Part shown: in pieces, positions 1,325 through 58,685 of the stretch | How positions within the stretch are numbered: position 1 is the first letter of the stretch | Layout of the letters: each line of letters begins with the position of its first letter | IMG/VR virus record: IMGVR_UViG_3300029516_000004 | Span: 31,480 to 95,479 of that record | DNA length: 64,000 nucleotides | Strand: one strand, 5' to 3' | From: a virus | Taxonomy: Duplodnaviria > Heunggongvirae > Uroviricota > Caudoviricetes | Program-made: the position numbers and the translations under genes | Notes under the pieces: model-generated | The model's input: only the letters and a program-made list of their open reading frames with translations | The model's database searches: none | Told to the model about the DNA's origin: nothing

Positions 1325-1534
1325 ATGGCTTTCATTCCACCAACCATCGACGACGTTAGACATTGCTCTAACGCTTTATCTGTAGACCCTGCCGAAACCG
1401 ACGCTGCCCGCGCCATTGCTGAACACTACTCAAAGATATCCAATCAGGAGTACCGCATCACCCAAGACGACCTGGATGATCTCACTGACACAATCGAATA
1501 TCTCATGGCCACTAACCAGCCAGACTCACAATAA
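1325..1534 (+). CDS. coi: Coi, C1 inactivator (69 aa)
   Basis: 69-aa ORF directly upstream of c1 in same orientation; size and position match P1 coi. Confidence 0.75.
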   Translation: MAFIPPTIDDVRHCSNALSVDPAETDAARAIAEHYSKISNQEYRITQDDLDDLTDTIEYLMATNQPDSQ

Positions 1535-1644
1535 ATGCACTAATAAATCTATTATTTTCGTTGGATCCTTCTATAATGGTGGCCAACAACTCCCAGTGTA
1601 ATCCGCTGTGAGTTGTTGGCCATGTCAATTCTGGAGGAGGATCA

Positions 1645-2496
1645 ATGATAAATTATGTCTACGGCGAACAACTGTACCAGGAGTTCGTCAGCTTCAGGGA
1701 TCTCTTTCTAAAAAAAGCTGTTGCACGCGCCCAACACGTTGATGCCGCCAGCGACGGTCGTCCTGTACGCCCGGTTGTCGTTCTGCCGTTCAAAGAAACG
1801 GACAGCATTCAGGCTGAAATTGATAAATGGACTTTAATGGCGCGGGAACTGGAACAGTACCCAGATCTCAATATCCCAAAGACTATTTTATATCCTGTGC
1901 CTAACATCCTTCGCGGTGTGCGTAAGGTTACGACTTATCAGACAGAAGCTGTGAACAGCGTCAATATGACCGCTGGCCGCATTATTCATCTGATTGATAA
2001 GGACATTCGCATCCAAAAAAGCGCGGGGGTCAATGAGCACAGTGCGAAATACATAGAGAACCTGGAAGCAACAAAAGAGCTAATGAAGCAGTACCCGGAG
2101 GATGAAAAATTCCGTATGCGCGTACACGGCTTTAGCGAAACAATGCTGCGCGTCCATTACATTTCCAGTAGCCCTAACTACAATGATGGTAAATCAGTTA
2201 GTTACCATGTGCCGCTATGTGGCGTGTTTATCTGCGATGAAACTCTCCGAGATGGAATCATCATCAACGGTGAATTTGAGAAAGCAAAATTTAGCCTTTA
2301 TGACTCTATAGAACCGATCATCTGCGACCGCTGGCCGCAGGCAAAAATATATCGCCTGGCAGATATTGAAAATGTAAAAAAACAAATTGCCATCACTCGC
2401 GAAGAGAAAAAGGTCAAATCAGCCGCATCAGTTACGCGCAGCCGTAAAACTAAGAAGGGGCAGCCAGTAAACAGCAACCCCGAAAGCGCGCAATAG
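1645..2496 (+). CDS. c1: C1 repressor of lytic functions (283 aa)
   Basis: 283-aa ORF with strong GGAGGAGG RBS, between coi and pacB as in P1; its predicted 17-bp operator recurs at about 12 sites in the window. Confidence 0.85.
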   Translation: MINYVYGEQLYQEFVSFRDLFLKKAVARAQHVDAASDGRPVRPVVVLPFKETDSIQAEIDKWTLMARELEQYPDLNIPKTILYPVPNILRGVRKVTTYQTEAVNSVNMTAGRIIHLIDKDIRIQKSAGVNEHSAKYIENLEATKELMKQYPEDEKFRMRVHGFSETMLRVHYISSSPNYNDGKSVSYHVPLCGVFICDETLRDGIIINGEFEKAKFSLYDSIEPIICDRWPQAKIYRLADIENVKKQIAITREEKKVKSAASVTRSRKTKKGQPVNSNPESAQ

Positions 2497-2521
2497 TTTT
2501 CCATCCGGCATGGTCAAATTG

Positions 2522-4006
2522 TTATTCATTAAGCCATGCCAGAGCTTCATCAACCTGCGCTTCGTCTTCGACGCTAAGCACTTCATCTTGGGGAACATAG
2601 TTCGCCAACATAGCGAAACAATATGTATCCCAATGGTCCGGTGAGTGCAGGTTGAGTTTTTTCTTCATATCTTCCTTTGACATCACCTTCCATTGACCTG
2701 CGGAATTTATCCCTACCGGTATCTTTGATGCTTCCTCTATAGTCGCAGCCCCCTTATCAAGCCGCATACGCCCTGATTTTACAGCTTCTGCCGCCTGAAT
2801 ATTCGCGAAAGCGCGCATATCGAAATAAAGGCTTTTATCTTCACGGCTGTGCATCTTTTTACCCCAGCGGATACGCTGGACGGTAATACCATAGCGTTCG
2901 TACATCAGATCAGCCGTCGATTTCCCCAAGCCATCGCCATCAATAGCTATGGTTATGTTCGGGAACCGTTCTGGGTTACATTCTGCGAAAATCTTGGCGG
3001 CTAACTGCGTTTCTGTAACGTCTGTGTATTCCAGCATACGATAGTTGATTACACGGCGTTTATTTCGCTGGCCGGACACCATCATGATATTAATAACGGA
3101 CTTATCTCGTCCTGCGCCACCAGCAACGTCAACACATGCAACCCAGCCCCATCCTTTGGCAATCTTGACCTTTCGCCGCGTCGCCCGCTCAACCTCATCA
3201 CGACCAAGAAGAAAGCCATCTTGAGATTTGGGAAATTCACCACGTACTTTAATCATATACATGGGGTTATCACGACCGCCATACTCCGCAAGTTTTGCTC
3301 GTATAAATTTTGCATCTACAAGCGGAGATTCTTCACTATTCAGTATTATCGCAGTAAACAATCCATCAGGATTTCCCGGGCGAATAGCTAGTCTGTGGTG
3401 TGAATCGTAGAAATAGCCTGAAGGTCGCGTAGGCTGGGAAAGAAGCAGAATACGGTTATCCTTACCGGTCAGCGCACCTGTTATCACACTGAATGCTTTA
3501 TCACTCACACCCGACGCTTCGTCGATGATATACAAGAGATGATCGGCGTGTTCACCAGCCAACGCCTCCTCATTTCCGGGGCGACAGGACTTTATCAATA
3601 TTGTCCAAACACCCTTGCCAGTCACCTCAAAAAAAGACGTTTCTGTAAGAATGAAATACTTCGACAACCACGGGAATCTGCTAACAGCAGTAGCCCAATT
3701 GCTCTTTATGTATTTGAAAATACCATCAAGGACTTGCTGTCTTTTGTTAGCGACCAGAATAACGCGAGCGCCGGGGAAAAACATGATGAAGAGTATTGCA
3801 ATGATACTCGTCATATCCGACTTACCAGTACCATGGCCGGAGGTCACACTTGTCCAACTGCCGTCCTGCTGCGTGGACTCAATGATCTCATCCTGCTGCC
3901 AGGTTGGTGTCTTCCCAAACAACACATCAGCGGCCGCAATCCAGTCATAACGATATAGCGCCACCAGCTCGCGCCAACGTGGGTCCGTTACGCAACTTCT
4001 GGCCAT
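2522..4006 (-). CDS. pacB: PacB terminase large subunit (494 aa)
   Basis: 494 aa, start overlaps pacA stop; synteny pacA-pacB-c1. Confidence 0.85.
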
Positions 4007-5199
4007 TAATCATCATCCCCGTACAGTTTGCGGGTAACTTCTTCGTCTTCCTCCTCGTCTTCGTCCAGATCCTGTTCAAGCCATGCTTCGTTTGATATGC
4101 CTTCCGCATCGACATCACCATAACCACCTGTATCGACGATATCGGCAATTTCTTCTCTACGATGCTCAATCCACAATGCGGCATCAGCGCGGCGGCTGGC
4201 GGCCCGTTCTCGCGCGATTTTATCCAGATCTTCAAGTGATGGAGCGCCAGATGCTGTTTGGTTTTCCTCGTCATCGGTATTGGTCTTAGGAGCACGCAGA
4301 TCGGCTTTGATTTGCTCCAGCATCAGGGGCGGCACTTTCCCTCCATGCGCCTCGATGAATTCAGCTGCTTCCAGCACTGACCAGTTATTTTCACGCTTTC
4401 GTTCGTATGCCAGCTTAACAATGCCAGCTTGCCCCATAGATAAAGCGTGCTTTTCCGCCTCCCGGCTTTCTTTTCGATAGTTATTCCGGATGCTGTAAAT
4501 GGTGTTGATCAGGCTGCTTATCTGCGCGGAACAGCTGTTTAGCATGCTCGCGATACGGTATTCAGGCGGAGTACCTTCATCATCGTCTTTTTGCTGATCG
4601 CGCATTTCCTGCACCAGGCGAATACACGTATCCCTGGCGTTCTCCAGCATAAGGAGATGAGAAAGAGACTTTTCAAGAAGAGTGGTTTCCAGAACATCGG
4701 CCCCGGACCGACGCAACATAGCGCGCGCGGCCTTCCGTGCTTCAACGTTATCTATCAGGTAATCGCCAGCTTCGAATTCAAAGCGTTCACCATCATCATC
4801 CAGGGTGTCGCGTTCCAGGCGATCACGTAAGGTACGGTGGGCGCGAGTGATCACGTCATGATCATCAGAACGATCATTTATGCGCTTATTTTGGCGCTTA
4901 GCGTTCTCGACTGCGGCACTGACAACAGCATTAACTCTTTGTTTTTCAGCCATTTCAGCCACAATGTGATCACCTGCACGTTGATCATTAGCGTGATCAA
5001 TGATCATGCTTTTTAGTGGTTTCCTGACAGGCTTATTTGGCTTACGACTGTCCGCTGTTCCGGTGTCTTCTTTGAATGCACGGAGATAACGACGTGCGGT
5101 GTTTGGGTTGAGATTAAACTCGGCGGCATATTGTGCGATGGTGTAACCACCATCTCGCGCCAGGCGAGCAAAATTCTTCTTGTGATCGTCCCAGGTCAC
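4006..5199 (-). CDS. pacA: PacA terminase subunit (397 aa), contains pac site
   Basis: 397 aa; the GATC-hexamer pac site lies in its 5' coding region. Confidence 0.85.
4821..5008. other. pac: pac packaging site with clustered TGATCA/G hexamers
   Basis: Two clusters of four Dam-site hexamers each (around 4821-4876 and 4965-5006) flanking a central segment, inside pacA. Confidence 0.75.
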
Positions 5200-5285
5200 T
5201 TATGCTTCCTTTCGTATAAAACTCTTTTTGACGCGAGGGTAACGAAAGTCACATGTCAAAAGGCCCGGAACGGGCAAGCAATCAA

Positions 5286-5738
5286 TCAGATACGTGCGGA
5301 TGTAGCATTACCGTAATGACGGTGCTGACGGGCCACCTTATTGAAAAGTTGACGCGCCATTACCCAAGGCTGGTGCTCCCGGCGTTCCTTTTCGTCCTGC
5401 GTCATATAGAGTTCGTTCTGGAGTTTTTCATCAAACCGGCGCGGAGCGCGGCTACGGCGAAAGAATTCAGGATTCAGAGAGTGGATCTGAAATCTACGTG
5501 GGCGTGTACTGTCATCAATCAAAACAGACGAATACTTAGACACAGCGATAGCCTTTAAGCGCAGATAAACATCGCGCTTATCGACATCCAGATGCGGGTA
5601 TTCCTTTTCAAGAATTGCTGCGAGTTCTTTCGCTGATAGAAGAGATTTAGTGCGGATCATGTAATCCGCAATCTCGTACGATGTTATTCGTGAGTGATTT
5701 ATTTCCATGAAGTGGCGTCCCTGCCAGTTAAGTAACAT
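5286..5738 (-). CDS. lpa: Lpa late promoter activator (150 aa)
   Basis: 150-aa ORF immediately upstream of pacA with operator-like site upstream; matches P1 gene 10 position and size. Confidence 0.7.
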   Translation of the reverse strand: MLLNWQGRHFMEINHSRITSYEIADYMIRTKSLLSAKELAAILEKEYPHLDVDKRDVYLRLKAIAVSKYSSVLIDDSTRPRRFQIHSLNPEFFRRSRAPRRFDEKLQNELYMTQDEKERREHQPWVMARQLFNKVARQHRHYGNATSARI

Positions 5739-5808
5739 CCTGTCACCTACTGATTAGCCCATGTCAACTAATCAACGTGGAATATAATACCCTCGATTAA
5801 AGAAATAG

Positions 5809-5825
5809 CAATACATTAGAGCAAT
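5809..5825. promoter_or_regulatory. C1 operator-like site upstream of lpa
   Basis: caATACATTAGAGCAAT, 14/17 to operator reverse complement. Confidence 0.5.
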
Positions 5826-5826
5826 T

Positions 5827-6870
5827 TTATCTAACGCTCAACGAGTGACTTGTGATAGCGCCGACTCCAAGCGCGTAATCAAAGAACAATCGTTGATGCA
5901 TCGCCAGCCTACCGTGCGTCTTCTCCCAATTATCGCGGTCACGCTCAATATCACGCTGGCATGACTGGCACAGAGGAATTGCGTAAATGTCATGCGCGCA
6001 TAATCGACTATGACGAACAATATAAGGCGTAATGTGAGCGCCAGCTCCCGCCGCTCCACACCCACAGCATGGACGGGAAGCAACAAAGTCCATGTACTCA
6101 GGTAATTTTAGCGATTGCAGTTTTGGTATTTTGAAATGCGCCATGCCAGGGTCGGAGTCAACATCCACAGGGCATACTTTTGCACGCATCGGCGCGGCGC
6201 GTTCTTCCATCATCTGAACATATGCTGTAGCGCGATCGTCATACGGGCGAATATCCGCCTCTTTCAGAGGTCCGCTATCCTGCGTTGCGGCTTTCATCTT
6301 ATTTATTGATATACGGCAAACTTCTTCCGGCATCAGGTGCATCATGTTGCGCATGAAAGCCCACCAGCACAGTTCCTGAATACTTAAATCATGGCCATCT
6401 GAAAGCCCCATTTCCTGACGGGCGACATCCAGTATCCAGTTAACGCGATTATTATGCAGCGTTTCTTTCAGCTCATTAAAACCACGCATCCGGTAATGGT
6501 TATCGTGATGCCAGCACAGCAACACCGCGCTATTGTCTCGTTCAGCGTGGACAATATGGTTGTCACACCAACTATGATCTGCGGCCTGGCATCGCCCCTC
6601 TTTCCTGCGCAACCACGCCACCAGCGCGTCAATTCCACCAATACGACGAAACAGCTCATCGCTGTTAAAAAACGGCTGCAACGCCTCATTTGTTGCCATG
6701 GTTTGCTCGGAAACAACGAGGCCGTCGTCCATGTGCTCGATTAACTCACGCGGCACCGGCTCCATAATAAATTTACGGCCAGCCTCCACCAGCTTTCTGA
6801 CCTCCTGATCCACTTTGAACGTGGCGAGGCCAAGCTCTTTCTGTACAAAGGGAGTAATTACGGCTTTCAC
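5827..6870 (-). CDS. hypothetical Cys/His-rich protein (347 aa), post-doc region
   Basis: ORF-track ORF; motifs CWHHDNH and [12 protein letters not shown]...CQSCQ suggest a metal-binding, possibly HNH-like, fold. Confidence 0.6.
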
Positions 6871-6897
6871 ATCACACCTTTAATCACTGATTGGGCT

Positions 6898-7098
6898 TTA
6901 TCTGCTGCCCGGCATTCTCTGTTTAAGCACAACCATTTCCTGACGGCATAACACAGCAATAGCGGTCCTGGCACCAATTTGCTTACCAACCAGGTATTGC
7001 TTTACCTTGCGGCGACTCACGCCATCAAGAAGCATCTTTAACGCTTCACGGGACAATTTGTTGTATTTGCGTGCCATTAATCTACTCCGCAGAACCAT
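6898..7098 (-). CDS. hypothetical small basic protein (66 aa)
   Basis: ORF immediately downstream of doc, overlapping its stop. Confidence 0.45.
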
Positions 7099-7462
7099 AC
7101 AATCTACGTAACGTGTCGGCGACAGAAGATACAGATATCTCGCCAGTCGCAGCGCCTACGGTAAGGTCTGCCAGTTCAGGTGAATCAAATACCTGCACCC
7201 CGTTACGGCGTAGAAATAGCAGCGCACTGTTTAGCGCGGTACGCTTATTGGCATCATTGAATATATGCCCTCTCGCTGTAGCCACCAGGTAGGTGGCGGA
7301 GACTTCGAAAAGGTCGGTGATCTCTTCGTAGGCAACTCTGGCCTGAACTCTCCCGATAATGGCCTCTGCCCTACCCGGATCTGACATTCCCGGCAGGCCG
7401 CCGTAGCGGTTTATATTCGCATCATGAAGCGCAATAAGTTCTTCCGGTGATATATGCCTCAT
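7082..7462 (-). CDS. doc: Doc toxin (Fic-fold kinase), 126 aa
   Basis: [43 protein letters not shown]... recognised as P1 Doc; start overlaps phd stop. Confidence 0.95.
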
Positions 7463-7683
7463 TATCGGTTAACCAGTTCCTTGTTGGTGGAGTCCAGGGT
7501 GTCAAACAGGGATGCAAATTCAGCATCCAGCGCCGCTTTTTTGTAGGCTTCGAAAGTAGCCTTGCTGACAATTACTGCTGGCTCACGGCCTCTGCGGGTG
7601 ATTTCAACCTCTTCCCCGGCCTCAACATTGTTGAGCACTTCAGAAAGGTTGCCGCGCGCGGTACGGAAGTTAATGGATTGCAT
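7462..7683 (-). CDS. phd: Phd antitoxin, 73 aa
   Basis: [73 protein letters not shown] recognised as P1 Phd. Confidence 0.95.
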
Positions 7684-7692
7684 AAATACCTC

Positions 7693-7720
7693 GTGTACTC
7701 GTTATGTGTACACAATTATA
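7693..7720 (-). promoter_or_regulatory. phd-doc promoter/operator with GTGTAC palindromes
   Basis: TATAAT (minus strand, 7715-7720) followed by TGTGTACACA and GTGTAC half-sites just upstream of phd RBS. Confidence 0.5.
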
Positions 7721-7859
7721 AACTTCACAGGCATAAAGCACCAGCACTTTGCGGCTTAACAAACCTCTAGGCAGGTCATTCGTAGCCTAATGTCCGAACT
7801 GCTAAAGCATCCAAGTTGCTGTAGAATCACCGCCAATTACATAAGCCTGAAATAAGTGG

Positions 7860-9422
7860 ATGAAAATGACAAGTATTCAACAACGTGCAGAGCTTCATCG
7901 TCAAATCTGGCAAATTGCTAACGATGTCAGGGGTTCGGTCGATGGATGGGATTTTAAGCAATACGTTCTGGGCGCACTTTTCTACCGTTTTATCAGCGAA
8001 AATTTTTCCAGCTATATTGAAGCCGGGGATGACAGTATCTGTTATGCGAAACTGGATGACAGCGTAATTACTGATGACATTAAAGACGATGCTATCAAAA
8101 CTAAAGGCTACTTCATCTACCCCAGTCAGCTTTTCTGCAACGTAGCGGCGAAAGCAAATACCAATGACAGACTGAATGCAGATTTAAACAGCATCTTCGT
8201 TGCTATCGAAAGTTCTGCTTACGGTTATCCTTCAGAAGCTGACATCAAAGGTTTGTTTGCTGATTTCGATACCACCAGTAACCGCCTGGGTAACACCGTT
8301 AAAGATAAAAATGCCCGCCTGGCTGCGGTTCTGAAAGGGGTTGAAGGGTTAAAACTTGGTGACTTCAACGAACATCAGATTGACCTGTTCGGTGATGCCT
8401 ATGAGTTCCTGATCTCTAACTATGCGGCAAATGCCGGTAAGTCAGGCGGCGAGTTCTTTACACCGCAGCACGTCTCTAAGCTGATTGCACAACTGGCTAT
8501 GCACGGGCAGACCCACGTTAACAAAATCTACGACCCGGCAGCAGGCTCCGGTTCGCTGTTGTTGCAGGCTAAAAAACAGTTTGATGACCATATCATCGAA
8601 GAAGGTTTTTTTGGTCAGGAAATCAACCATACGACCTATAACCTGGCGCGTATGAACATGTTTTTGCACAACATCAACTACGACAAGTTTGATATCAAGC
8701 TGGGCAATACGCTGACTGAACCGCACTTCAGAGATGAAAAACCGTTTGATGCCATCGTTTCTAACCCGCCGTATTCGGTGAAATGGATTGGCAGCGATGA
8801 CCCGACGCTGATTAACGATGAACGTTTTGCCCCGGCTGGCGTTCTGGCCCCCAAATCCAAAGCTGACTTTGCGTTTGTATTACATGCGCTGAACTATCTT
8901 TCTGCCAAAGGTCGTGCTGCGATTGTTTGCTTCCCGGGTATTTTTTACCGTGGCGGTGCGGAGCAGAAAATCCGTCAGTATCTGGTCGACAATAACTATG
9001 TCGAAACCGTGATTTCACTGGCACCGAATCTGTTCTTTGGCACCACCATTGCCGTCAATATTCTGGTGCTGTCTAAACATAAAACCGATACCAAAGTTCA
9101 GTTTATTGACGCCAGCGAACTATTCAAAAAAGAGACCAACAACAATATCCTGACCGATGCCCATATCGAACAGATTATGCAGGTATTTGCCAGCAAGGAA
9201 GATGTTGCTCATCTGGCGAAATCAGTCGCGTTTGAGACCGTTGTTGCTAATGACTATAACCTGTCGGTGAGCAGCTATGTTGAAGCGAAAGATACTCGCG
9301 AAATTATCGATATCGCTGAGTTGAATGCAGAGCTGAAAACCACGGTCAGCAAAATCGACCAGTTGCGTAAAGATATTGATGCAATTGTGGCTGAAATTGA
9401 AGGCTGCGAGGTGCAGAAATGA
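7860..9422 (+). CDS. hsdM: Type I R-M N6-adenine DNA methyltransferase HsdM (520 aa)
   Basis: Motif [12 protein letters not shown] and motif IV SNPPY; translationally coupled to hsdS (ATGA overlap). Confidence 0.95.
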
Positions 9423-10636
9423 GCGAGTTGAGTTATCTGGAAAAATTGATGGATGGGGTTGAAGTTGAGTGGTTGCCACTCTCAAAAGTATTCAACTTAA
9501 GGAATGGTTATACACCGTCTAAAACTAAAAAAGAATTTTGGGCGAATGGTGATATACCTTGGTTCAGAATGGATGACATACGTGAAAATGGTAGAATTCT
9601 AGGGAGTTCACTTCAAAAAATTTCATCCTGCGCCGTAAAAGGGGGGAAACTATTTCCTGAAAATTCAATATTAATATCAACGTCGGCAACAATTGGTGAG
9701 CATGCTTTAATCACTGTACCTCATCTAGCCAATCAAAGGTTTACATGTTTGGCTTTAAAAGAGTCTTATGCTGATTGCTTTGATATTAAATTTTTATTTT
9801 ACTACTGTTTTTCTTTAGCTGAGTGGTGCCGAAAAAACACAACGATGTCCAGTTTTGCGTCTGTTGATATGGATGGATTCAAAAAATTTTTAATCCCTCG
9901 CCCCTGCCCGGATAATCCGGAAAAATCCCTTGCCATCCAGTCTGAAATCGTGCGAATTCTGGACAAATTCAGCGCCCTTACTGCAGAGCTTACTGCAGAG
10001 CTTACTGCAGAGCTTAGCATGCGTAAAAAACAATACAACTACTATCGCGACCAGTTGTTGAGTTTTAAAGAGGATGAGGTTGAGGGTAAGAGGAAAACCT
10101 TAGGGGAAATTATGAAGATGCGTGCCGGACAACATATTTCGGCTCATAATATAATTGAAAGAAAAGAAGAGAGTTATATATATCCTTGTTTTGGAGGAAA
10201 TGGCATACGGGGTTACGTCAAAGAAAAAAGTCATGATGGAGAACATCTATTAATAGGGCGACAAGGAGCATTGTGTGGTAATGTTCAAAGAATGAAAGGC
10301 CAGTTCTATGCTACAGAACATGCTGTTGTAGTTTCAGTCATGCCCGGGATTAACATTGACTGGGCATTTCATATGTTAACGGCAATGAATCTAAACCAAT
10401 ATGCTTCAAAATCGGCACAACCGGGACTTGCTGTAGGGAAATTACAGGAATTGAAATTATTTGTCCCTTCAATAGAGAGACAAATATATATTGCCGCAAT
10501 ACTCGATAAATTCGACACTCTGACCAACTCCATCACCGAAGGTCTCCCGCGTGAAATCGAGTTACGCCAGAAACAGTACGAATATTATCGAGATATGCTA
10601 TTTAGTTTCCTGAAGCCGGAAGTAGCAGAGGCATGA
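9419..10636 (+). CDS. hsdS: Type I R-M specificity subunit HsdS, type IC-like (405 aa)
   Basis: Two AT-rich variable TRD-like halves separated by a conserved central region carrying [13 protein letters not shown]; conserved C-terminal repeat region. Confidence 0.92.
9977..10012 (+). repeat. 3 x 12-bp in-frame tandem repeat CTTACTGCAGAG encoding (LTAE)x3 in hsdS central spacer
   Basis: Perfect triplicate at 9977-9988, 9989-10000, 10001-10012, plus partial fourth unit. Confidence 0.95.
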
Positions 10637-10637
10637 C

Positions 10638-11828
10638 ATGGGCAAGACACTCTCGGAAATAGCTCAACAGCTTAGTACGCCTCAGAAAGTCAAGAAGACT
10701 GTCCATAAAGAAGTTGAAGCGACCAGGGCCGTGCCAAAGGTGCAGTTAATCTACGCTTTCAATGGCACGGGGAAAACGCGTCTTTCCCGGGATTTCAAGC
10801 AACTGCTTGAGTCCAAAGTTCATGACGGAGAAGGTGAAGACGAAGCTGAACAGTCCGCGTTGTCGCGCAAAAAAATCCTCTATTATAATGCCTTCACCGA
10901 GGACTTGTTCTATTGGGATAACGATCTGCAAGAAGACGCAGAACCGAAGCTGAAGGTGCAGCCTAACTCCTATACAAACTGGTTGCTGACCTTGCTAAAA
11001 GATTTGGGACAGGATAGCAATATCGTCCGTTATTTCCAGCGCTATGCGAACGACAAGCTAACGCCACACTTCAATCCAGATTTTACCGAAATCACTTTTT
11101 CCATGGAGCGCGGTAACGATGAGCGTTCCGCCCACATCAAGTTATCCAAAGGTGAAGAGAGCAACTTCATCTGGAGTGTGTTTTACACCCTACTGGATCA
11201 AGTGGTAACAATTCTCAATGTCGCTGACCCGGATGCGCGCGAGACCCACGCATTTGATCAACTGAAATATGTATTCATTGATGATCCCGTTAGCTCCCTT
11301 GATGATAACCACTTGATTGAACTGGCGGTTGATCTTGCAGGGCTGATCAAATCCAGCGAATCCGATTTGAAGTTCATTATCACGACACATAGTCCAATAT
11401 TTTATAATGTACTTTTCAATGAGTTGAACGGTAAAGTTTGCTACATGTTGGAAAGTTTTGAGGATGGTACATTTGCCCTCACAGAAAAATATGGCGACTC
11501 TAACAAGAGTTTTTCCTACCATCTCCACCTAAAGCAAACAATCGAACAGGCAATTGCTGACAACAACGTTGAAAGATATCATTTCACGTTACTGCGCAAT
11601 CTTTATGAGAAAACGGCCAGCTTTCTGGGCTACCCTAAATGGTCTGAACTCTTGCCTGACGACAAGCAGCTTTATCTGAGCAGAATCATCAATTTCACAA
11701 GCCACAGCACGCTATCGAATGAGGCCGTTGCAGAGCCAACGCCAGCGGAGAAAGCGACTGTCAAACTGTTGCTCGATCACTTGAAGAACAACTGTGGCTT
11801 CTGGCAGCAGGAACAAAAAAATGGTTGA
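10638..11828 (+). CDS. prrC: PrrC-type anticodon nuclease (396 aa) embedded in hsd locus
   Basis: N-terminal Walker A FNGTGKTR; C-terminal R-x3-E (LRNLYEKT) with His 36 residues later, falling at positions 320/324/356; gene order hsdM-hsdS-prrC-hsdR. Confidence 0.85.
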
Positions 11829-14800
11829 TTGCACCAAACCAATTGCTGAGTCCAATAATTTTATCATTTTGGACAAATACAACCCGGACTGGAAGATTAC
11901 CGAGAGCTACCAGAGCGAAGGTGATCTGGAGCGTGAGCTGATTCAGGATTTGGTTAACCAGGGCTATGAATACCTGCCAACCCTGAACAACACCAAGGCT
12001 ATGCTCGCTAATGTCAGGGAACAGTTGCAAAACCTTAACAATGTAGAGTTCCTGGAGGCTGAATGGCGTCGCTTTGTGGAAACCTGGATGGACAAGCCCA
12101 GCGATGGCGTTGTTGAAAAGGCCCGCAAGATTCATGATGATTATGTTCATGATTTCGTCTTCGACGATGGCCGTATTCAGAATATCTATCTGCTGGATAG
12201 AAAAAACATCCTTCGCAATAAAGTGCAGGTCATCAAGCAGTTTGAACAAGCAGGCACGCACGCCAATCGCTACGATGTCACCATTCTGGTCAATGGCCTG
12301 CCGCTGGTACAAATTGAATTGAAAAAACGTGGTGTAGCGATTCGTGAGGCTTTCAACCAGATACATCGTTACAGTAAAGAGAGTTTTAACAGCGAAAATT
12401 CCCTGTTTAAGTATCTGCAGCTGTTCGTCATTTCCAACGGCACTGATACCCGTTATTTTGCCAACACCACAAAGCGCGATAAAAACAGTTTTGACTTCAC
12501 CATGAACTGGGCTAAATCAGACAATACACTGATTAAAGACCTCAAAGACTTTACCGCTACCTTTTTCCAGAAACATACTCTGCTTAATGTTCTGGTGAAC
12601 TACAGCGTTTTTGACAGCAGTCAGACGCTACTGGTAATGCGACCGTACCAGATTGCCGCCACCGAGCGCATTCTGTGGAAAATTAAGAGTTCCTTTACAG
12701 CGAAGAACTGGTCAAAACCGGAAAGCGGTGGGTATATCTGGCACACTACCGGTTCTGGTAAAACCCTCACCAGCTTTAAAGCCGCGCGTCTGGCAACAGA
12801 ACTGGACTTTATTGATAAAGTTTTCTTTGTGGTCGACAGGAAAGACCTCGATTACCAGACCATGAAGGAATATCAGCGTTTTTCGCCAGACAGCGTCAAC
12901 GGCTCGGAAAATACCGCAGGCCTTAAACGAAATCTGGATAAGGACGATAACAAAATTATCGTCACTACTATTCAGAAACTCAATAACCTGATGAAAGCAG
13001 AAAGCGACCTGCCTGTATATAATCAGCAAGTGGTGTTTATATTTGATGAATGCCACCGCAGCCAGTTTGGAGAAGCGCAGAAAAACCTGAAGAAGAAATT
13101 CAAACGCTATTATCAGTTTGGTTTTACCGGCACCCCTATTTTCCCGGAAAACGCCTTAGGCTCAGAAACAACCGCCAGCGTATTTGGTCGTGAATTGCAT
13201 TCGTATGTAATTACCGATGCGATTCGTGACGAAAAAGTGCTCAAATTCAAGGTGGACTACAACGATGTGCGGCCACAGTTTAAGTCTTTAGAGACAGAAA
13301 CTGACGAGAAAAAACTGAGTGCGGCTGAAAATCAGCAGGCGTTTCTTCATCCCATGCGTATTCAGGAAATCACGCAATATATTCTGAATAATTTCCGCCA
13401 GAAAACCCACCGTACCTTCCCTGGCTCAAAAGGTTTTAATGCTATGTTGGCAGTGAGCAGCGTGGATGCCGCGAAAGCCTATTATGCGACGTTTAAACGG
13501 TTACAAGAAGAAGCCGCTAATAAATCGGCTACCTATAAACCGCTGCGTATTGCGACAATCTTCTCCTTTGCCGCCAATGAAGAACAAAATGCCATTGGTG
13601 AAATTTCCGATGAAACTTTTGATACCAGCGCAATGGACAGCAGTGCTAAAGAGTTTCTGGACGCTGCAATTCGTGAATATAACAGCCATTTTAAAACTAA
13701 CTTTAGCACCGACAGTAACGGTTTTCAGAACTACTATCGTGATTTAGCCCAGCGGGTTAAAAATCAGGATATCGATCTGCTAATTGTCGTGGGGATGTTT
13801 TTAACCGGTTTCGATGCTCCAACATTAAACACGCTATTCGTCGATAAAAACTTGCGTTTTCACGGCCTGATGCAGGCATTCTCCCGCACCAACCGCATTT
13901 ATGACGCGACTAAAACCTTCGGTAATATTGTCACGTTCCGAGATCTGGAACGCTCAACCATTGATGCCATAACGCTGTTTGGTGACAAAAATACCAAAAA
14001 TGTGGTTTTAGAAAAGAGTTATGCAGAGTATATGGAAGGCTTTACTGATGCTGCCACTGGTGAAGCTAAGCGCGGCTTTATGGCAGTAGTTTCAGAACTG
14101 GAACAACGGTTCCCTGACCCTACCAGTATTGAAAGTGAAAAAGAGAAGAAAGACTTCGTTAAACTGTTTGGTGAATACCTGCGTGCCGAGAACATCCTGC
14201 AAAACTATGATGAATTTGCCACGCTGAAAGCCCTGCAACAAATCGATCTTAGCGATCCTGTTGCGGTAGAAAAATTCAAAGAAGAACATTATGTGGATGA
14301 TGAAAAGTTCGCTGAATTGCAAACGATTCGTCTCCCTGCTGAACGCAAGATTCAGGATTATCGTTCTGCCTATAACGATATTCGTGACTGGCAGCGCCGC
14401 GAGAAAGAAGCTGATAAAAAAGAAAAATCAACCACTGACTGGGATGACGTGGTTTTTGAGGTCGATTTGCTGAAGTCTCAGGAAATAAACCTGGATTATA
14501 TCCTTGGACTGATTTTCGAACACAACAGACAAAATAAAGGCAAGGGCGAAATGATCGAAGAGGTCAAACGCTTAATTCGTTCAAGCCTGGGGAACCGGGC
14601 GAAAGAGGGCCTGGTGGTCGATTTTATTCAGCAAACGAACCTGGATGATTTACCAGACAAAGCCAGTATCATTGAGGCATTCTTTACGTTTGCTCAACGC
14701 GAACAGCAACGTGAAGCAGAAGCATTGATAAAAGAAGAAAATCTCAATGAAGATGCAGCAAAACGCTATATTCGCACGTCTTTAAAACGCGAATACGCCA

Positions 14801-14940
14801 CCGAAAATGGCACAGAATTAAACGAAACATTACCAAAACTTAGTCCGTTGAATCCGCAATATAAAACGAAAAAACAGGCAGTTTTCCAGAAAATCGTCTC
14901 GTTTATTGAGAAGTTTAAAGGCGTAGGCGGAAAAATATAG
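11821..14940 (+). CDS. hsdR: Type I R-M restriction endonuclease/translocase HsdR
   Basis: PD-(D/E)xK-like D..ELK ([18 protein letters not shown]), helicase motif I HTTGSGKT, motif II DECH; ORF-track start 11794 lacks RBS, ATG at 11821 has AGGAAC RBS. Confidence 0.93.
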
Positions 14941-14956
14941 CCCAATTCGTGTTTTT

Positions 14957-14984
14957 CTTGCGGGTTCTTAATTAAACCCGCAAG
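14957..14984. other. 10-bp-stem hairpin downstream of hsdR
   Basis: CTTGCGGGTT-cttaatta-AACCCGCAAG perfect inverted repeat; no U-tract on either strand. Confidence 0.4.
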
Positions 14985-15019
14985 AGCTCGTGGGGTTCCA
15001 AATGGCTAATATACTCCCC

Positions 15020-15106
15020 TTACCCATGCGCGACGATGCCGCCAAAAGTGATAGAGAACAGCCAGAAATAGATCGCGGCCATAATGATTTTGAATGCCGT
15101 GTTCAT
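15020..15106 (-). CDS. candidate small hydrophobic peptide (28 aa)
   Basis: Manual translation MNTAFKIIMAAIYFWLFSITFGGIVAHG; AGGAG RBS 7 nt upstream; below ORF-track size cut-off; downstream of a C1 operator. Confidence 0.3.
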   Translation of the reverse strand: MNTAFKIIMAAIYFWLFSITFGGIVAHG

Positions 15107-15134
15107 ATTTTCAGCTCCTGTGATTGATTGGATA

Positions 15135-15165
15135 CATGCCGCGCCTTGCGGCATGTTTTTATTTT
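15135..15165 (+). terminator. rho-independent terminator ending the hsd operon
   Basis: CATGCCGC-gcctt-GCGGCATG 8-bp stem followed by TTTTTATTTT. Confidence 0.65.
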
Positions 15166-15188
15166 CACTTCCCCTGCCTTAAAAATCT

Positions 15189-15205
15189 ATATTTATTAGA
15201 GCAAT
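15189..15205. promoter_or_regulatory. C1 operator 17-mer at the distal edge of the hsd island
   Basis: ATATTTATTAGAGCAAT (16/17, reverse orientation); candidate -35 TTCATC and -10 TAAATA overlap on minus strand. Confidence 0.65.
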
Positions 15206-15711
15206 TATTGTTGATGAAGAAGCGCATTTTCATACTCCCTGACCATTAATGTAAGTACGCCGTGACTCCTGAAAACACGCGCCACTTCAATCTTATCTTC
15301 CAGCGCGAACGCAATTTTACTTAGACCAATTTTCTTCAGGAGATCAATCTTTGCTGGACCGTCATTTCTGTCATCGGTGGCAGGACGCATAGATAGCAAA
15401 GGCTCCGCCCCATTTGTTACGTGCTTACGCAACCAGGCTCGTGTTTTATCCCTGGCTATCTCACAGCGCCCGGTTACAAACCAGAGGGTGTAAATGCCGG
15501 ACAACTGGCGCACCATATCAATAACTGGAGTGATGGGAGCATCAGTGTCACAGGCAAGGTTAAACTCGTTCCAGTGCTCTGTTAATGCACCTTTGCCAGG
15601 TGGTGGAAGTAAATGCAGCCTGTCTTCCGTTGCCTCTGATATCGTCCCATCAATATCTACTATGACGATGTACGGACGTTCCTGGTGTGCGTGTTTATTG
15701 AAAATACTCAA
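15205..15711 (-). CDS. HAD-superfamily phosphatase-like protein (168 aa)
   Basis: N-terminal VIVDIDGTIS (DxDGT catalytic motif of HAD phosphatases, as in polynucleotide 3'-phosphatases). Confidence 0.7.
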   Translation of the reverse strand: MSIFNKHAHQERPYIVIVDIDGTISEATEDRLHLLPPPGKGALTEHWNEFNLACDTDAPITPVIDMVRQLSGIYTLWFVTGRCEIARDKTRAWLRKHVTNGAEPLLSMRPATDDRNDGPAKIDLLKKIGLSKIAFALEDKIEVARVFRSHGVLTLMVREYENALLHQQ

Positions 15712-15783
15712 ATGCCCTCCTCATTGGACGAAAAAAATGCTGGTGGGAGCACTCCACCAGCATTAAAAGTGACACTGTAACTA

Positions 15784-17046
15784 TCAGCGAACGTAAATAG
15801 TGCCGCCGTTCTCTTTTTCCCATGCATCGCTACGTGCATAGCAAACATCGAGAAGTCTTCTTGCCGCAGTTTCCTCTAAACCCAATTCGACAACCAACTG
15901 CTCATGACGGCGGGTAACCACATCAAACAGGGTATGCAGCCCTTTAGTTGCCAGATCATCAATGAATTCCGGTTCGAACGGCAGCTCTGCATCTGCCAAC
16001 ATAACCTCTTGCGCCCACTCAACTCGACGGACCAATTCCGGGCGACGGCTTTCCATCTCTTTACAGATCAATTCATGGAAGAACTCTACCCAACCTTCCG
16101 GCTGGAACTCGCGGAAAATTGCCAACGGCTGGAAGTTTGGCATCAACCATTCGTTGATTCGGATATCAATGGCATAGCCCATGTCGCAGCAGAACTGATA
16201 AGCAAAGTCCAGCTTAGAAACGATATAAGGACGCTCGTTATTGAACTCTTTAGGCGATGAGATCCCATAAGCCAGGAGGCGCGGGAAGAAGGAGATTTGC
16301 CCTAACGTCGGATGAAGTTTGCTTGCAGGGAAACGGCGCTCAGTAATGCCATACATTTCCTTCTTGAGCGTCGCAAATTTGGCATTCTCATTAACCAGCG
16401 CGGTAACCTCTGCTTTTTTATTAGCAAATGCCACGCGCGCCTCGCTTGCATCTTTAATAGTTTTTTTGAGCTGTTGGTTAAGGTCGGCGACCTGCTTACG
16501 CAGTTCCTGTCGCTCGCTTTTAGCTTTGTTATAGCGTTTCTCAAGGTTAAAAGGATCAAGTTTCATGATCTCTTTATATTGAGATTTTAGCGTTGAAATC
16601 TGTGAGTTCCGCAGTTCAACCATCGCAGTCATTTCATTGAGTTTTGTTTCCAGCTCAATGCTTATACGTTCGGCATTATCAGCACGCTGGTTGGCGTCAT
16701 GCGTCGCATCGTCGATCGCGTCCTGTTGCTGGCGTTTCAAATGTTCAATTTCCAGCTGAAGCTCTTCAATTTCTTTACCCTTCAGACCGAGATCCAACTG
16801 CATATTTTCAGCTGCATCTACCAGGGAGTTATGGCTATCAGCTTCTGCGTTATAAACATCAATAAGCTGTGCGTGAAGCATCTCCGCTGACTGAACCGCA
16901 TTATCAAAAAAACGTGCTGTGAGGTCATCACAACTAACGCGGCGTTGCGCGGCCCGGATGTTCTGGATAATGGCCGGGATACCGGCATTCAGGACATCAG
17001 GGATACATACATTTTCGATTGATTGGTTTTGTGCTGAAGTGCTCAT
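15784..17046 (-). CDS. hypothetical protein with long coiled-coil segment (420 aa)
   Basis: ORF-track ORF; heptad-rich central region (ELQLEIEHLKRQQQ...). Confidence 0.6.
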   Translation of the reverse strand: MSTSAQNQSIENVCIPDVLNAGIPAIIQNIRAAQRRVSCDDLTARFFDNAVQSAEMLHAQLIDVYNAEADSHNSLVDAAENMQLDLGLKGKEIEELQLEIEHLKRQQQDAIDDATHDANQRADNAERISIELETKLNEMTAMVELRNSQISTLKSQYKEIMKLDPFNLEKRYNKAKSERQELRKQVADLNQQLKKTIKDASEARVAFANKKAEVTALVNENAKFATLKKEMYGITERRFPASKLHPTLGQISFFPRLLAYGISSPKEFNNERPYIVSKLDFAYQFCCDMGYAIDIRINEWLMPNFQPLAIFREFQPEGWVEFFHELICKEMESRRPELVRRVEWAQEVMLADAELPFEPEFIDDLATKGLHTLFDVVTRRHEQLVVELGLEETAARRLLDVCYARSDAWEKENGGTIYVR

Positions 17047-17047
17047 T

Positions 17048-17266
17048 TCAAAGTTCCGTATTAGCTTGTGCTTCGGTCATTTTTCCTAAGTATGAAGGAG
17101 GAAGGACTACGCAATTTGTATCCAGTCCCTCACCTATGGCAGCCTGTAAAATTCTGGCTAAGGTGAGTCTCTTGTTGCGATACCTGGTGATGACATGCCT
17201 GATACCGCCGGTCGGCGTAACAAAGGCGATCAGCCAGTAGTGATATTTCCGTCGGAATGGCCACAT
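17048..17266 (-). CDS. hypothetical protein (72 aa)
   Basis: ORF abutting the downstream gene; preceded by operator/terminator module. Confidence 0.45.
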   Translation of the reverse strand: MWPFRRKYHYWLIAFVTPTGGIRHVITRYRNKRLTLARILQAAIGEGLDTNCVVLPPSYLGKMTEAQANTEL

Positions 17267-17280
17267 AGTGCACCTTGTAG

Positions 17281-17346
17281 ATTGCTCTAATAAAAAACGT
17301 GATGAGTGTACATCACGTTTTAAAAATATGGAATTATTAGAGCAAT
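17281..17346. promoter_or_regulatory. two inverted C1 operator-like 17-mers flanking a bidirectional terminator hairpin
   Basis: ATTGCTCTAATAAAAAA (17281-17297), hairpin ACGTGATG-agtgta-CATCACGT with flanking A/T runs, then GGAATTATTAGAGCAAT (17330-17346). Confidence 0.6.
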
Positions 17347-17347
17347 A

Positions 17348-18049
17348 TTATTCTGATTCTCGCTCAAAAAATGAGCTGATAAGGGGAAGCCAATCCTCTG
17401 ACACTTCGCGAGGTCGCGGTTTGCCGTGGAAAAAGATTATTCGGCAGTCTTTTGGTAATGCCCCATTCCCCCTGGAGTAACGCGCGCTCGCATATTTTGA
17501 ACCAGGTTCCACAACATCGGCCTTGTAACTTACAAACCATCCTGGATACAGATCCTGAAATGCTGGTGTATCATCGCCCATAACCTTTCGTAAGAACCCC
17601 TGGTCCCCCCAGCACTCAGTAGTGACACAACGAGAAATCCAACCTTCCGGATCTTGCCAGAATGAACTCCAGATATGCGCTTTAACACTATTTGGTATCC
17701 ACAGGGCACCGCTGCCACGATATTGTGGATGGTAAAAATCCCTAAGCATGGTGAAGCTGGTTGGTGGATGCTCTAGGATTGGGCGTATATCACCGGCAAT
17801 AACCGTGTCCAAATCCAGATAGAACAGATCATCGGTTATATCCGGTCGGAACAACTCGATTTTCGCCCACCAGCCACGGCACTTTTGCCACTGGTTGATC
17901 AATGGGACAACTTTGACGCCAGGTACATGTAAACGCTTCAGGTCTGTCAGGCAAATAATTTCATAGCCTTTTGGCAGTTGATTAACCAGCCACTGCACAT
18001 CGGAAGCGTTATAGTCACCACCAGAGCGAAAAACTAAAGCAATCTTCAT
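17348..18049 (-). CDS. hypothetical protein (233 aa)
   Basis: ORF-track ORF, stop overlaps downstream start of the phosphatase operon. Confidence 0.6.
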
Positions 18050-18738
18050 GCTGCACCATCACCTTTCACTTTCATCAATGTCAGGTTTCCGCAAAATACG
18101 GCACCAGTGTCGATATACTGCTGATTCCAGAATGTCTTCGGGCTTTTCACCGGAGTGTGACCAAAGATAAAACGATCTGCGCCCGAAATTTCGCCACCAA
18201 TATCATCCATCGAATCACTGATACGCTCGCGCGCCCAGACAACGTTGAAAAGCGGCACCTCCTTACCGAATTGGTATTCATTATCCGGATAGTCGGCATG
18301 GGCTATAACGATAGTTTCTTGCCCGGTGTTCAACTCAATGATATAGGGCAGACGCTTTACCAGCTCCACCAGCGCCCAGGCTAATATTTCCTGATCAGTG
18401 TCCAGCATGAAGAACCATTGTCCGCCATTCATTAGCCAGTTATTCACGTTGCCATCTGGACTTAACGCATCAATCATCAGCCGCTCATGGTTCCCCATCA
18501 CTGCCCTGAACCAGGGCATCTGCAATAGTTCCAGACATTCGACATTTTCAGTACCGCGATCGATAAGGTCGCCGACCGATATCAGTAAATCCTGCGCCGG
18601 GTCAAAATCCACACGATGGAGTTCGGACATCAGTCTGGTGTAACAACCATGCAGATCACCAACAACCCAGATATTCCTGTATTTGGTACCGTCGATACGG
18701 TGATAAATTGTTGGTGCCATCATGTATTCTTCAGCCAT
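18046..18738 (-). CDS. ppp: Ser/Thr protein phosphatase, lambda-PPase-like metallophosphatase (230 aa)
   Basis: GDLHG, GDLIDRG and GNHE metallophosphatase motifs. Confidence 0.85.
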
Positions 18739-36343: not shown

Positions 36344-36565
36344 TTATCCACATTATCCACTGGATAGATCCAATAATTAGGTCCATACAGATCCCTATTA
36401 GATCCATATAGATCCCTGATCGTTGCAGGCCGCGCCACGTCTGGCTTAGAAGTGTATCGCGATGTGTGCTGGAGGGAAAACGATGTGTGCTGGAGGGATA
36501 AAAATGTGTGCTGACGGGTTGCTAATGTGTGCTGGCGGGATATAGGATGTGTGCTGACGGGAAAG
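36344..36565. other. oriR: plasmid origin oriR: tandem DnaA boxes, GATC cluster, five 19-bp RepA iterons (incC)
   Basis: TTATCCACA and TTATCCACT (36344-36361); five GATC in 36367-36418; iterons GATGTGTGCTGGAGGGAAA-like x5 (36459-36565). Confidence 0.85.
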
Positions 36566-36620: not shown

Positions 36621-37481
36621 ATGAATCAATCATTTATCTCCGATATTCTTTACGCAGACATTGAAAGTAAGGCAAAAGAACTAACAGTTAATTCAAACAA
36701 CACTGTGCAGCCTGTAGCGTTGATGCGCTTGGGGGTATTCGTGCCGAAGCCATCAAAGAGCAAAGGAGAAAGTAAAGAGATTGATGCCACCAAAGCGTTT
36801 TCCCAGCTGGAGATAGCTAAAGCCGAGGGTTACGATGATATTAAAATCACCGGTCCTCGACTCGATATGGATACTGATTTCAAAACGTGGATCGGTGTCA
36901 TCTACGCGTTCAGCAAATACGGCTTGTCCTCAAACACCATCCAGTTATCGTTTCAGGAATTCGCTAAAGCCTGTGGTTTCCCTTCAAAACGTCTGGATGC
37001 GAAACTGCGTTTAACCATTCATGAATCACTTGGACGCTTGCGTAACAAGGGTATCGCTTTTAAGCGCGGAAAAGATGCTAAAGGCGGCTATCAGACTGGT
37101 CTGCTGAAGGTCGGGCGTTTTGATGCTGACCTTGATCTGATAGAGCTGGAGGCTGATTCGAAGTTGTGGGAGCTGTTCCAGCTTGATTATCGCGTTCTGT
37201 TGCAACACCACGCCTTGCGTGCCCTTCCGAAGAAAGAAGCTGCACAAGCCATTTACACTTTCATCGAAAGCCTTCCGCAGAACCCGTTGCCGCTATCGTT
37301 CGCGCGAATCCGTGAGCGCCTGGCTTTGCAGTCAGCTGTTGGCGAGCAAAACCGTATCATTAAGAAAGCGATAGAACAGCTTAAAACAATCGGCTATCTC
37401 GACTGTTCAATTGAGAAGAAAGGCCGGGAAAGTTTTGTAATCGTCCATTCTCGCAATCCAAAGCTGAAACTTCCCGAATAA
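36621..37481 (+). CDS. repA: RepA plasmid replication initiator (286 aa)
   Basis: 286-aa ORF flanked by iteron arrays on both sides. Confidence 0.92.
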   Translation: MNQSFISDILYADIESKAKELTVNSNNTVQPVALMRLGVFVPKPSKSKGESKEIDATKAFSQLEIAKAEGYDDIKITGPRLDMDTDFKTWIGVIYAFSKYGLSSNTIQLSFQEFAKACGFPSKRLDAKLRLTIHESLGRLRNKGIAFKRGKDAKGGYQTGLLKVGRFDADLDLIELEADSKLWELFQLDYRVLLQHHALRALPKKEAAQAIYTFIESLPQNPLPLSFARIRERLALQSAVGEQNRIIKKAIEQLKTIGYLDCSIEKKGRESFVIVHSRNPKLKLPE

Positions 37482-37482
37482 G

Positions 37483-37760
37483 TGTGTGCTGGAGGGCAGC
37501 TGCATTTGAAAAATGTGCGCTGCCGGGAATGCCTGCCCATTTTCCTGTTTTTGGTGTGCGCTGGAGGGTTGCGCCACGCAGTTTGCCCAGACATTCCCTC
37601 CAGCACACATCTAACCATCCAAGTTTCCCTCCAGCGCACATCTAATCTTCTATCTTTCCCTCCAGCACACATATTTGATACCAGCGATCCCTCCACAGCA
37701 CATAATTCAATGCGACTTCCCTCTATCGCACATTCTGGTCATGCATCATCCCTCCAGCAC
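37483..37760. repeat. incA: incA iteron array (RepA-binding copy-number control)
   Basis: Multiple TGTGTGCTGGAGGG-type iterons in both orientations downstream of repA. Confidence 0.8.
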
Positions 37761-57900: not shown

Positions 57901-58685
57901 GCTATTTAGGTGGTGAAATCTATACACCTGGAGCAGGAGCACAGGGTGGGGCGCAATATGGAGTGAGGGGACCACTGCCTGATAACGCTGTTATCGATCA
58001 GTCTACTGGCCTGGCGTTTACCCCTGGTGATAGCCCGTTTGAGAAAGGCGGTCTGGTAGACAAAATCGGCAATGCTGTTGGCGTTAACGATCTGGTCAAC
58101 AAATTCATGAATGGCCGGGGTATGCGTCGGGAAGTCGTTCAGGGAACGCTCGAAGAACGTGCACGAGGGAAGGGGACCGCAACAGCAGCTGGCAATGTGT
58201 ATGTTGATACTCCGATGCCAGTTGAAGAGGCGCGTCCGGTGGCCAGCAACTCAAGTTACTTTGACCAACTCGGCGCACAAATGGGGATTGATGGACTATT
58301 CGATAAACTCCGCAACTCGCCGGGGATGCGGAAAAATAATGCGACTGAACCAGCCTCCACGTCCAAGGTGACGACTGCCGCCAACGATTTGCAGCAACCA
58401 ACCGGTCGTATGCAGATAGACGGGCAGGTTATTAGTGACCTTGGCGGTTCCGGTGCCAAGCCGACAATGCAGTTGGCTGATAATACCGTTTCACTTGATG
58501 GTGAAACGAAGCGGCTGTTTGCGCAGATGACCTCATTGCTTGCCAGGATTGAAGAGCACACCAAAGACTCGGCGAAAGGCCAGGGAACTGTCGTAAAGGT
58601 CAGCACGCCTCAGCCGGGCGTTATGCGCACGGTACCACTGTCAATTGATGATCCGTTGATGAATGACTACGCGAGAGTTGATTGA
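54996..58685 (+). CDS. sit: Sit-like injection/tape-measure protein with lytic transglycosylase domain (1229 aa)
   Basis: SLT motifs AIAATESGGNPYAKSQTGALGMFQF; long Gly/Ala-rich and coiled segments; internal in-frame duplication. Confidence 0.85.
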   Translation: MERKNANIDDVIRTVETASAKELEELAGIREAVEDLKGERVATVDPVSRSVSALNRTIENSRPDFVTNAPSVDPIVDAIKRLNLGDVSRIREDKVTNREQQAAPTAHNPPNRRREAITEDVKAQRLETVKLARDLKGERVATVDPVSRSVSALNRTIENSRPDFVANAPSVDPIVDAMKRLNLGDVSRIVQEGIAQQEQQVKSTTPKGKKRRRKAIPEDIKAQRTEAAEHAREMFDQKGGAQKSQNQRDARGRFIGKSGSKAAAEDARAERAERARRKEDDERLNAESGLLKKLSKVAEGIGNPSETRAVDALGYAVAGPLWAAGKELGGISKEVGGSLNGARKSIADVIRGNDDNSRRKGFFRRKSQNSADVVQVNTQKRTVQELQEQTSEIKEGNDKILSALDQIAKNTGKKKGGLLSKLFSLLGKGAGGVASLLMGRGMLKKAGALAFGALGAKKLVGMLRGGGKKTIAHEGGDLAARAAGKLGLKAVGKGALRAIPLVGTVAGGIYDAVTGWNDTEAQRRAFGLKSGQDPSFQQKAAYTLANVLDMGGLVSGISSAIGEVLKSLGFEDIGNMLQSFSTESIAQAIDSGITNLETYISNLGDTISTKFEDYTAKIGDAVSAWFSDTSNKLLEKLDAIKDFFTVDNLKQVFSDAIDSAIDFIKNPGKHIKEAAGNIWDGVKNLPGKALDAAVDAVKNTPAAMIVSKIPNPIGEANAKEITPELKAPVNSHQETSDSKTESDAKQTNIVTRVINAALDSAKDSNKTVKETANQIINANAVETGNSALQKIDKAIGQNSSSSSSLNTTGTRNDIQKAADTYNNGRLDVKVGSLGSEGKANLDKLAPYFAELENKYGLPEGTLYAIAATESGGNPYAKSQTGALGMFQFTGIAREETGLAEGESFDPVKSAEAAALLMSKYLKQANGDLNEAITAYNAGFGTINKWKKGTGDLSKENREYAIKVNTHRARYLGGEIYTPGAGAQGGAQYGVRGPLPDNAVIDQSTGLAFTPGDSPFEKGGLVDKIGNAVGVNDLVNKFMNGRGMRREVVQGTLEERARGKGTATAAGNVYVDTPMPVEEARPVASNSSYFDQLGAQMGIDGLFDKLRNSPGMRKNNATEPASTSKVTTAANDLQQPTGRMQIDGQVISDLGGSGAKPTMQLADNTVSLDGETKRLFAQMTSLLARIEEHTKDSAKGQGTVVKVSTPQPGVMRTVPLSIDDPLMNDYARVD
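55098..55564 (+). repeat. in-frame direct duplication inside sit (about 170 bp repeated at 297-bp spacing)
   Basis: 55098-55267 nearly identical to 55395-55564; both encode GERVATVDPVSRSVSALNRTIENSRPDFV(T/A)NAPSVDPIVDA(I/M)KRLNLGDVSRI. Confidence 0.9.

Follow-up and report, generated by a model that had tools for sequence, protein, structure and literature searches.

A perfect TAEL-coding repeat in the hsdS gene of a P1-like phage-plasmid and the natural variation of its copy number

The hsd operon and its embedded anticodon nuclease

The DNA analysed here, referred to as the window, is a stretch of 64,000 nucleotides from a tailed-phage record (IMGVR_UViG_3300029516_000004, positions 31,480 to 95,479). 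Its plus strand carries hsdM (7860..9422), hsdS (9419..10636), prrC (10638..11828), and hsdR (11821..14940) in succession, which by their sequences make up an intact type IC operon of the EcoR124/EcoprrI type with an embedded PrrC anticodon nuclease. The hsdM product, which matches the Pfam families N6_Mtase (2.5e-121) and HsdM_N, comprises 520 amino acids if read from 7860 and 518 if read from 7866, the start used in annotated relatives, and the end of the gene overlaps the hsdS start in an ATGA. The 405-amino-acid product of hsdS is a type IC specificity subunit that matches Methylase_S (PF01420) at 1.8e-43. HsdR, the type IC motor and nuclease subunit of 1039 amino acids, is read from the ATG at 11821, the same start codon as in annotated relatives, and contains the domains EcoR124_C (1.1e-71), T1R_D3-like, SWI2_SNF2, and HSDR_N. 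Three features that mark the type IC, or EcoR124, family are found here, namely the conserved regions of HsdS, an in-frame 12-bp TAEL repeat in the central conserved region D1, and HsdR and HsdM of the EcoR124 type.

The 396-amino-acid prrC gene, named "anticodon nuclease" by its source, begins two nucleotides past the hsdS stop, overlaps the start of hsdR, and occupies the position between hsdS and hsdR that is typical of EcoprrI. Residues K46, D222, D287, F292, Y294, R320, E324, and H356 all occupy the positions known from E. coli PrrC (PMC1484252, PMC1950546), so that the catalytic triad R320/E324/H356, the Walker A lysine K46, D222, and the 11-residue peptide 284-294 at the tRNA-Lys recognition position are all in place. 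This identity of the 396-amino-acid ORF therefore marks the locus as a type IC system of the EcoprrI type.

The slot in P1-like DNA

The operon is carried by a P1-like phage-plasmid, in which it lies between phd/doc and pap. It is flanked on the left by pacA/pacB, lpa, pdcB, doc, and phd and on the right by pap, pmgS, and ppp. The hsdMS-prrC-hsdR island (window 7684-15204) replaces humD, lxr, hot, upfM-O, and pmgT-V of P1 (AF234172, 3510-7000). The P1 reference annotation (AF234172) also notes these flanking sequences at the hsd loci of EcoDXXI and R124/3, the classical examples. Type IC cassettes thus have a fixed place in P1-derived DNA, historically the home of the family, and that of the window occupies it. 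Here, then, a P1-like phage-plasmid carries the classical "optional" prr locus, with prrC complete.

The island is directly adjoined by P1 pap (window 15205-15711, minus strand), whose product contains a PNKP-type 3'-phosphatase domain (Pfam HAD_PNKP). Phage T4 undoes PrrC damage with Pnk and RNA ligase; the placement of pap next to the prrC island may be coincidental, pap being ordinary P1 backbone. Elsewhere in the window, direct-repeat arrays of about 19-31 bp containing GATGTGTGCTGG occur at 36364-36562 and 37594-37672, flanking a 286-amino-acid ORF (36621-37481), an arrangement that we take to resemble the P1 incC/incA iterons around repA. Additionally, a 297-bp unit repeated 1.9 times at 83% identity (55098-55652) lies within a 1229-amino-acid ORF (54996-58685) and is an internal duplication in a large, probably structural phage protein.

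The repeat array and the architecture of HsdS

Tandem Repeats Finder located a perfect array at 9977..10016 on the plus strand, with a period of 12, 3.3 copies of the consensus CTTACTGCAGAG, 100% matches, and no indels, in agreement with the raw sequence. The array lies in frame 0 of the ORF 9419..10636 and encodes (LTAE)3L, which reads as TAEL three times and falls at residues 187-198 of the 405-amino-acid protein; the random expectation for a perfect 3 x 12 repeat in a sequence of the same length and composition is about 2.4e-10. The original prediction had described a perfect, in-frame repeat of three 12-bp units in hsdS encoding LTAE three times, and this is borne out by the repeat search, the raw sequence, and the translation. 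The end that it had given, 10012, correctly closes the third full unit, but the array runs for four bases more (CTTA), to 10016.

The best solved-structure match of HsdS, in a phmmer search against the PDB, is the specificity subunit of EcoR124 (7bst_A, 2.3e-72). The conserved stretches 1-26, 119-236, and 310-402 align with it, but neither target-recognition domain (TRD) does, and within D1 the alignment sets two TAEL copies in EcoR124 against three in the window. The N-terminal TRD (approximately residues 15-160; 9461..9898, plus strand) is not alignable to that of EcoR124, and other N-terminal TRDs are found in three related loci (L003, L004, and L005). The C-terminal TRD (approximately residues 222-350; 10082..10468, plus strand), which likewise does not align to EcoR124, is common to these three loci and to two further proteins (P0025 and P0026). 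A comparison with the HsdS of EcoKI (target ...GTGC), aimed at the C-terminal TRD as a possible reader of TGC, gave no significant similarity to the window HsdS.

An AlphaFold2 model of HsdS, built with 120 homologues and reaching a mean pLDDT of 87, contains two long helices. The first runs unbroken through 48 residues (167-214), in the middle of which lies the repeat, and the second spans residues 352-394. The former is the central conserved helix D1 (9917..10060, plus strand), which aligns to the central region of EcoR124, and the latter is the C-terminal conserved helix D2 (10472..10600, plus strand). In the S subunits whose structures have been solved, D1 and D2 pair as an antiparallel coiled coil (PMC3874165), and D2 is the putative partner of D1 in the window protein. 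With three copies, D1 has 17 residues between ILDKF and RKKQY, and D2 has 17 between ILDKF and RQKQY; this equality of length is in line with PMC3874165, where three copies are called symmetric and "optimal". At the DNA level, D1 and D2 share no useful identity, so that intragenic recombination between them is not a likely route of change. Since the window contains neither silent hsdS cassettes nor a second hsdS, the TAEL repeat alone provides the hsd locus with a built-in means of variation.

Two- and three-copy relatives of the allele

The HsdS of E. coli NCCP 15734 is the same as that of the window except for a deletion of four residues (12 bp) in the array. At the DNA level, the only difference between window 1419-18636 and a 95.3-kb contig (L011, GCA_053667825.1) is one 12-bp gap at the repeat; the match extends over 17,206 bp and is free of substitutions. 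The 12.7 kb shared with a contig from SRR29736714 (L014) show the same pattern. A second pair exists on another haplotype, which is 64-66 substitutions away from that of the window: the three-copy plasmid pRHB17-C14_2 (CP057689) differs from two two-copy loci (L007 and L009) by two substitutions and one 12-bp gap over the 7.5-kb operon, and by 13 substitutions over 13 kb. The difference between two and three copies would have arisen at least twice, unless, as could in principle have happened, a short recombination patch moved the repeat region between the haplotypes. The original prediction had held that unequal crossing-over or slippage in the array would change recognition specificity, and the natural two-copy versions of the same allele, together with this second pair, support it.

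Copy number within the allele is markedly uneven. Two copies are present in all 15 further contigs fetched for the window allele, and at least 34 of the contigs listed encode two-copy proteins of this allele, whereas three copies are confined to the window and CP057689. Furthermore, a collection of about 15 billion proteins includes the two-copy form but not the exact 405-amino-acid HsdS of the window. These comparisons suggest that the ancestral state is likely two copies and that the window likely represents a very recent gain of one unit (2 to 3), because its closest relative has two copies and is otherwise identical.

The absence of the exact protein from so large a collection that holds its two-copy form would also fit a third copy produced by faulty assembly or sequencing of the record. 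Such an artefact is hardly credible, since any read is longer than the whole array of 40 bp, the same three copies are present in CP057689, an independent complete plasmid, CP061756 has three copies with a different N-terminal TRD, and other plasmids and species commonly have three.

Variation at this locus extends to the TRDs. At about 90% identity, the TRD pair of the window is accompanied by two copies in Citrobacter and Enterobacter and by one copy in a protein of Enterobacter hormaechei (P0023). In the same P1 slot, L003 and L004 (2560-3717) combine the C-terminal TRD of the window with essentially the GAA-reading N-terminal TRD of EcoR124I and two copies, and L005 (2560-3783) combines it with a third N-terminal TRD and three copies. 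These sister prr loci with other N-terminal TRDs indicate that TRD swapping and repeat-number change both operate at the locus.

Copy number and unit sequence across the family

Arrays of one, two, three, and four copies all occur in the family. Exactly two copies are found in 103 of the 120 closest homologues, a sample biased to proteins that share the N-terminal TRD of the query. A scan of one genome per species gave 14 two-unit, 3 three-unit, and no four-unit arrays among 17 loci, and in a set of evenly spread plasmid hits, in which copies were read from alignment spans, about 30 of the 55 usable rows had two copies, about 24 had three, and one had four. The impression given by the 120 homologues that three copies are very rare is ruled out by the 3 of 17 species-level loci and the approximately 24 of 55 plasmid rows, according to which such arrays are common across the family. 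The sampled plasmids are mostly P1-sized (90-115 kb), non-mobilizable, and from E. coli. The four-copy array was confirmed in sequence as CTTACCGCTGAG repeated four times (NZ_CP122941.1; L038, 3074-3121), and an IS3-family element interrupts this hsdS about 250 bp downstream of the array, so the only four-copy case seen is a disrupted gene. Four-copy constructs made by Gubler and Bickle in 1991 reportedly relaxed gap discrimination. A pattern for the D1 region with one to three or four to six units, which does match the window and the fetched loci, gave no matches in the IMG/VR viral contigs.

Of the 17 species-level loci, 16 have arrays whose units are exact DNA copies of one another, while units of different genes differ at synonymous positions (CTTACCGCTGAG, CTTACCGCCGAG, CTTACAGCTGAA, and CTTACGGCTGAG, next to CTTACTGCAGAG in the window). 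Identity within genes combined with synonymous divergence between them bears the mark of concerted evolution, a pattern to be anticipated where units keep being lost and restored from neighbouring ones.

A repeat that merely serves as a fixed structural segment of the coiled coil, with three identical turns by chance and a copy number that is constant in practice, would account for the agreement of most members within any one lineage, for the two copies in 15 of 15 further contigs of the allele, and for the prevalence of two copies among the closest homologues. Such constancy is nevertheless very improbable. It is already contradicted by the identical 17.2-kb pair and is at odds with the presence of near-isogenic two- and three-copy pairs on two different haplotypes, with the existence of one- and four-copy variants, with the identity of units within genes despite their synonymous divergence between genes, and with the laboratory switch between EcoR124 and EcoR124/3 in the literature (PMC3874165). 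Recurrent natural change in copy number is shown here, as are the anatomy of the array and its family membership.

Two side observations concern the distribution of these genes. One Kiloniellaceae MAG carries two type IC hsdS genes built on the same unit, CTTACCGCCGAG, one with two units and the other with three (L024, 5516-5589, and L025, 7401-7486). Enterobacterial-looking central regions of type IC hsdS also occur in a Flavobacteriia assembly, on contigs of Chryseobacterium sp. 18061 (L023 and L035), where horizontal transfer or contamination could explain them.

Copy number as a probable determinant of specificity

That TAEL repeats act as a ruler in type IC enzymes has been textbook knowledge since 1987-1992. 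EcoR124I, with two copies, recognizes GAA N6 RTCG, while EcoR124II, with three, recognizes GAA N7 RTCG, and each unit moves the TRDs 0.34 nm further apart and turns them by 36 degrees (PMC3874165). EcoDXXI (TCA N7 RTTC) and EcoprrI (CCA N7 RTGC) have three copies each, and in engineered hybrids the gap shifted exactly as the copy number predicted (PMC3874165). Changes in copy number at the repeat arise by unequal crossing-over, and the switch between EcoR124 and EcoR124/3 was a laboratory event (PMC3874165). The same account of copy number and gap is given in PMC7383803, which also considers that repeats between TRDs may be phase-variable. The rule put forward in the original prediction, that two copies give N6 and three give N7 as in EcoR124I and EcoR124II, matches both sources.

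Against this background, the array of the window is best read, with a probability of roughly 0.85, as the TAEL length module of D1 in a type IC HsdS, whose copy number would set the spacing of the TRDs and hence the specificity of the enzyme. In the proposed mechanism, D1 and D2 would form an antiparallel coiled coil and thereby keep the two TRDs apart, and each added 12-bp unit would contribute four residues more, or about one helical turn. Replication slippage or unequal crossing-over between identical units could add or remove one unit in frame, and the altered distance and twist between the TRDs would then admit a different number of unspecified base pairs in the target. The outcome would be a new restriction and modification specificity, with the same half-sites separated by a different gap.

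The effect of copy number on the recognized sequence is carried over from the work on EcoR124I/II and EcoDXXI, an extrapolation from three or four characterised enzymes; by this analogy, the firmer prediction is that the half-sites of the window enzyme should lie one base pair further apart than those of its two-copy sibling. The gaps would be N7 for the window and N6 for the sibling only if the half-sites are of three and four bases. To our knowledge, all characterised type IC enzymes have half-sites of these lengths.

Tempo and significance of copy-number change

The original prediction had called the repeat a candidate specificity switch. The natural variation in copy number agrees with this description, but a switch in the sense of fast phase variation is not what the relatives display, as at least 34 contigs of the allele have two copies. 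A fast, reversible contingency tract, with mixed two-, three-, and four-copy subpopulations in each culture and possibly a methylation-dependent regulon under its control, would be in keeping with variable copy number in nature and with the treatment of inter-TRD repeats as candidate phase-variable elements in PMC7383803. It is very unlikely on three grounds. The tract consists of only three 12-bp units, far below the long, hypermutable tracts of known contingency loci, the 34 or more independent contigs of the same allele were uniformly assembled with two copies, and a phage-plasmid location together with an abortive-infection nuclease points to defence rather than gene regulation. Change in the TAEL length module instead appears to be a rare, heritable re-keying on an evolutionary timescale, and nothing in the sequences points to rapid phase variation. 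It is considered rare in view of the shortness of the tract and of the uniform copy number in almost all contigs sampled from any one lineage.

More tentatively, the TAEL array might serve P1-like phage-plasmids as a recurrent re-keying device, by which otherwise identical lineages would become mutually restricting after the gain or loss of a single 12-bp unit, and the homogenised units might reflect selection for a slippage-prone array. This extension is possible, though the odds are against it. If it holds, a prophage would exclude its closest relatives and escape their restriction while keeping PrrC as a back-up. A cell that changes its specificity survives, because restriction by type I systems is alleviated for as long as its chromosome lacks modification at the new sites.

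The mechanism itself is long known, and the window provides a further natural example from the same P1-derived context as the classical ones. What is new is a natural near-isogenic pair, formed by the window and either GCA_053667825.1 or SRR29736714, along with a second, independent pair. These isogenic pairs offer material for testing the rule of one turn to one base pair on new TRDs, and could help to show whether such changes matter for competition among P1-like phage-plasmids, in which a fixed slot is taken by this type IC cassette, often together with PrrC. In annotation, hsdS alleles 12 bp apart should be counted as different specificities.

Comparison with known systems

The closest structural parallel is EcoR124I/II, whose HsdS proteins have the same conserved regions, including the (T/S)ALTAEL stretch, and the same 12-bp TAEL-coding repeat, and which themselves form a natural pair of two and three copies with otherwise identical genes (PMC3874165). 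The EcoR124_C domain of HsdR is also shared, and, by the P1 reference annotation, DNA beside pap in P1 corresponds to that which follows hsdR in R124/3, so that the genomic slot is the same. In contrast, both TRDs of the window differ from those of EcoR124I, from which it follows that its half-sites are not GAA and RTCG; the repeat units differ at synonymous sites, the D1 flanks read SAL...SMRKK in the window and TAL...NMRKK in EcoR124, and the window has prrC inserted between hsdS and hsdR.

In gene order, the window resembles EcoprrI (the prrA-D locus of E. coli CT196; CCA N7 RTGC), which is likewise arranged as hsdM-hsdS-prrC-hsdR. The functional residues and the 284-294 peptide of PrrC occupy the same positions in the 396-amino-acid protein of the window, and three TAEL repeats are reported for EcoprrI (PMC3874165), as in the window. 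The specificity of EcoprrI cannot be assumed for the window, since at least three different N-terminal TRDs occur among related P1-borne prr loci. No HsdS named EcoprrI appeared among the cluster look-ups and the homologue search, in which source names are generic.

EcoDXXI (TCA N7 RTTC) differs from the window in its TRDs, and no prrC has been reported for it. Its two- and three-copy hybrids with EcoR124I constitute experimental evidence, whereas that from the window is comparative. It nevertheless shares with the window both the three TAEL units, which in EcoDXXI accompany an N7 gap, and the P1 sequences on either side of the hsd locus, those of doc/phd and of the pap side.
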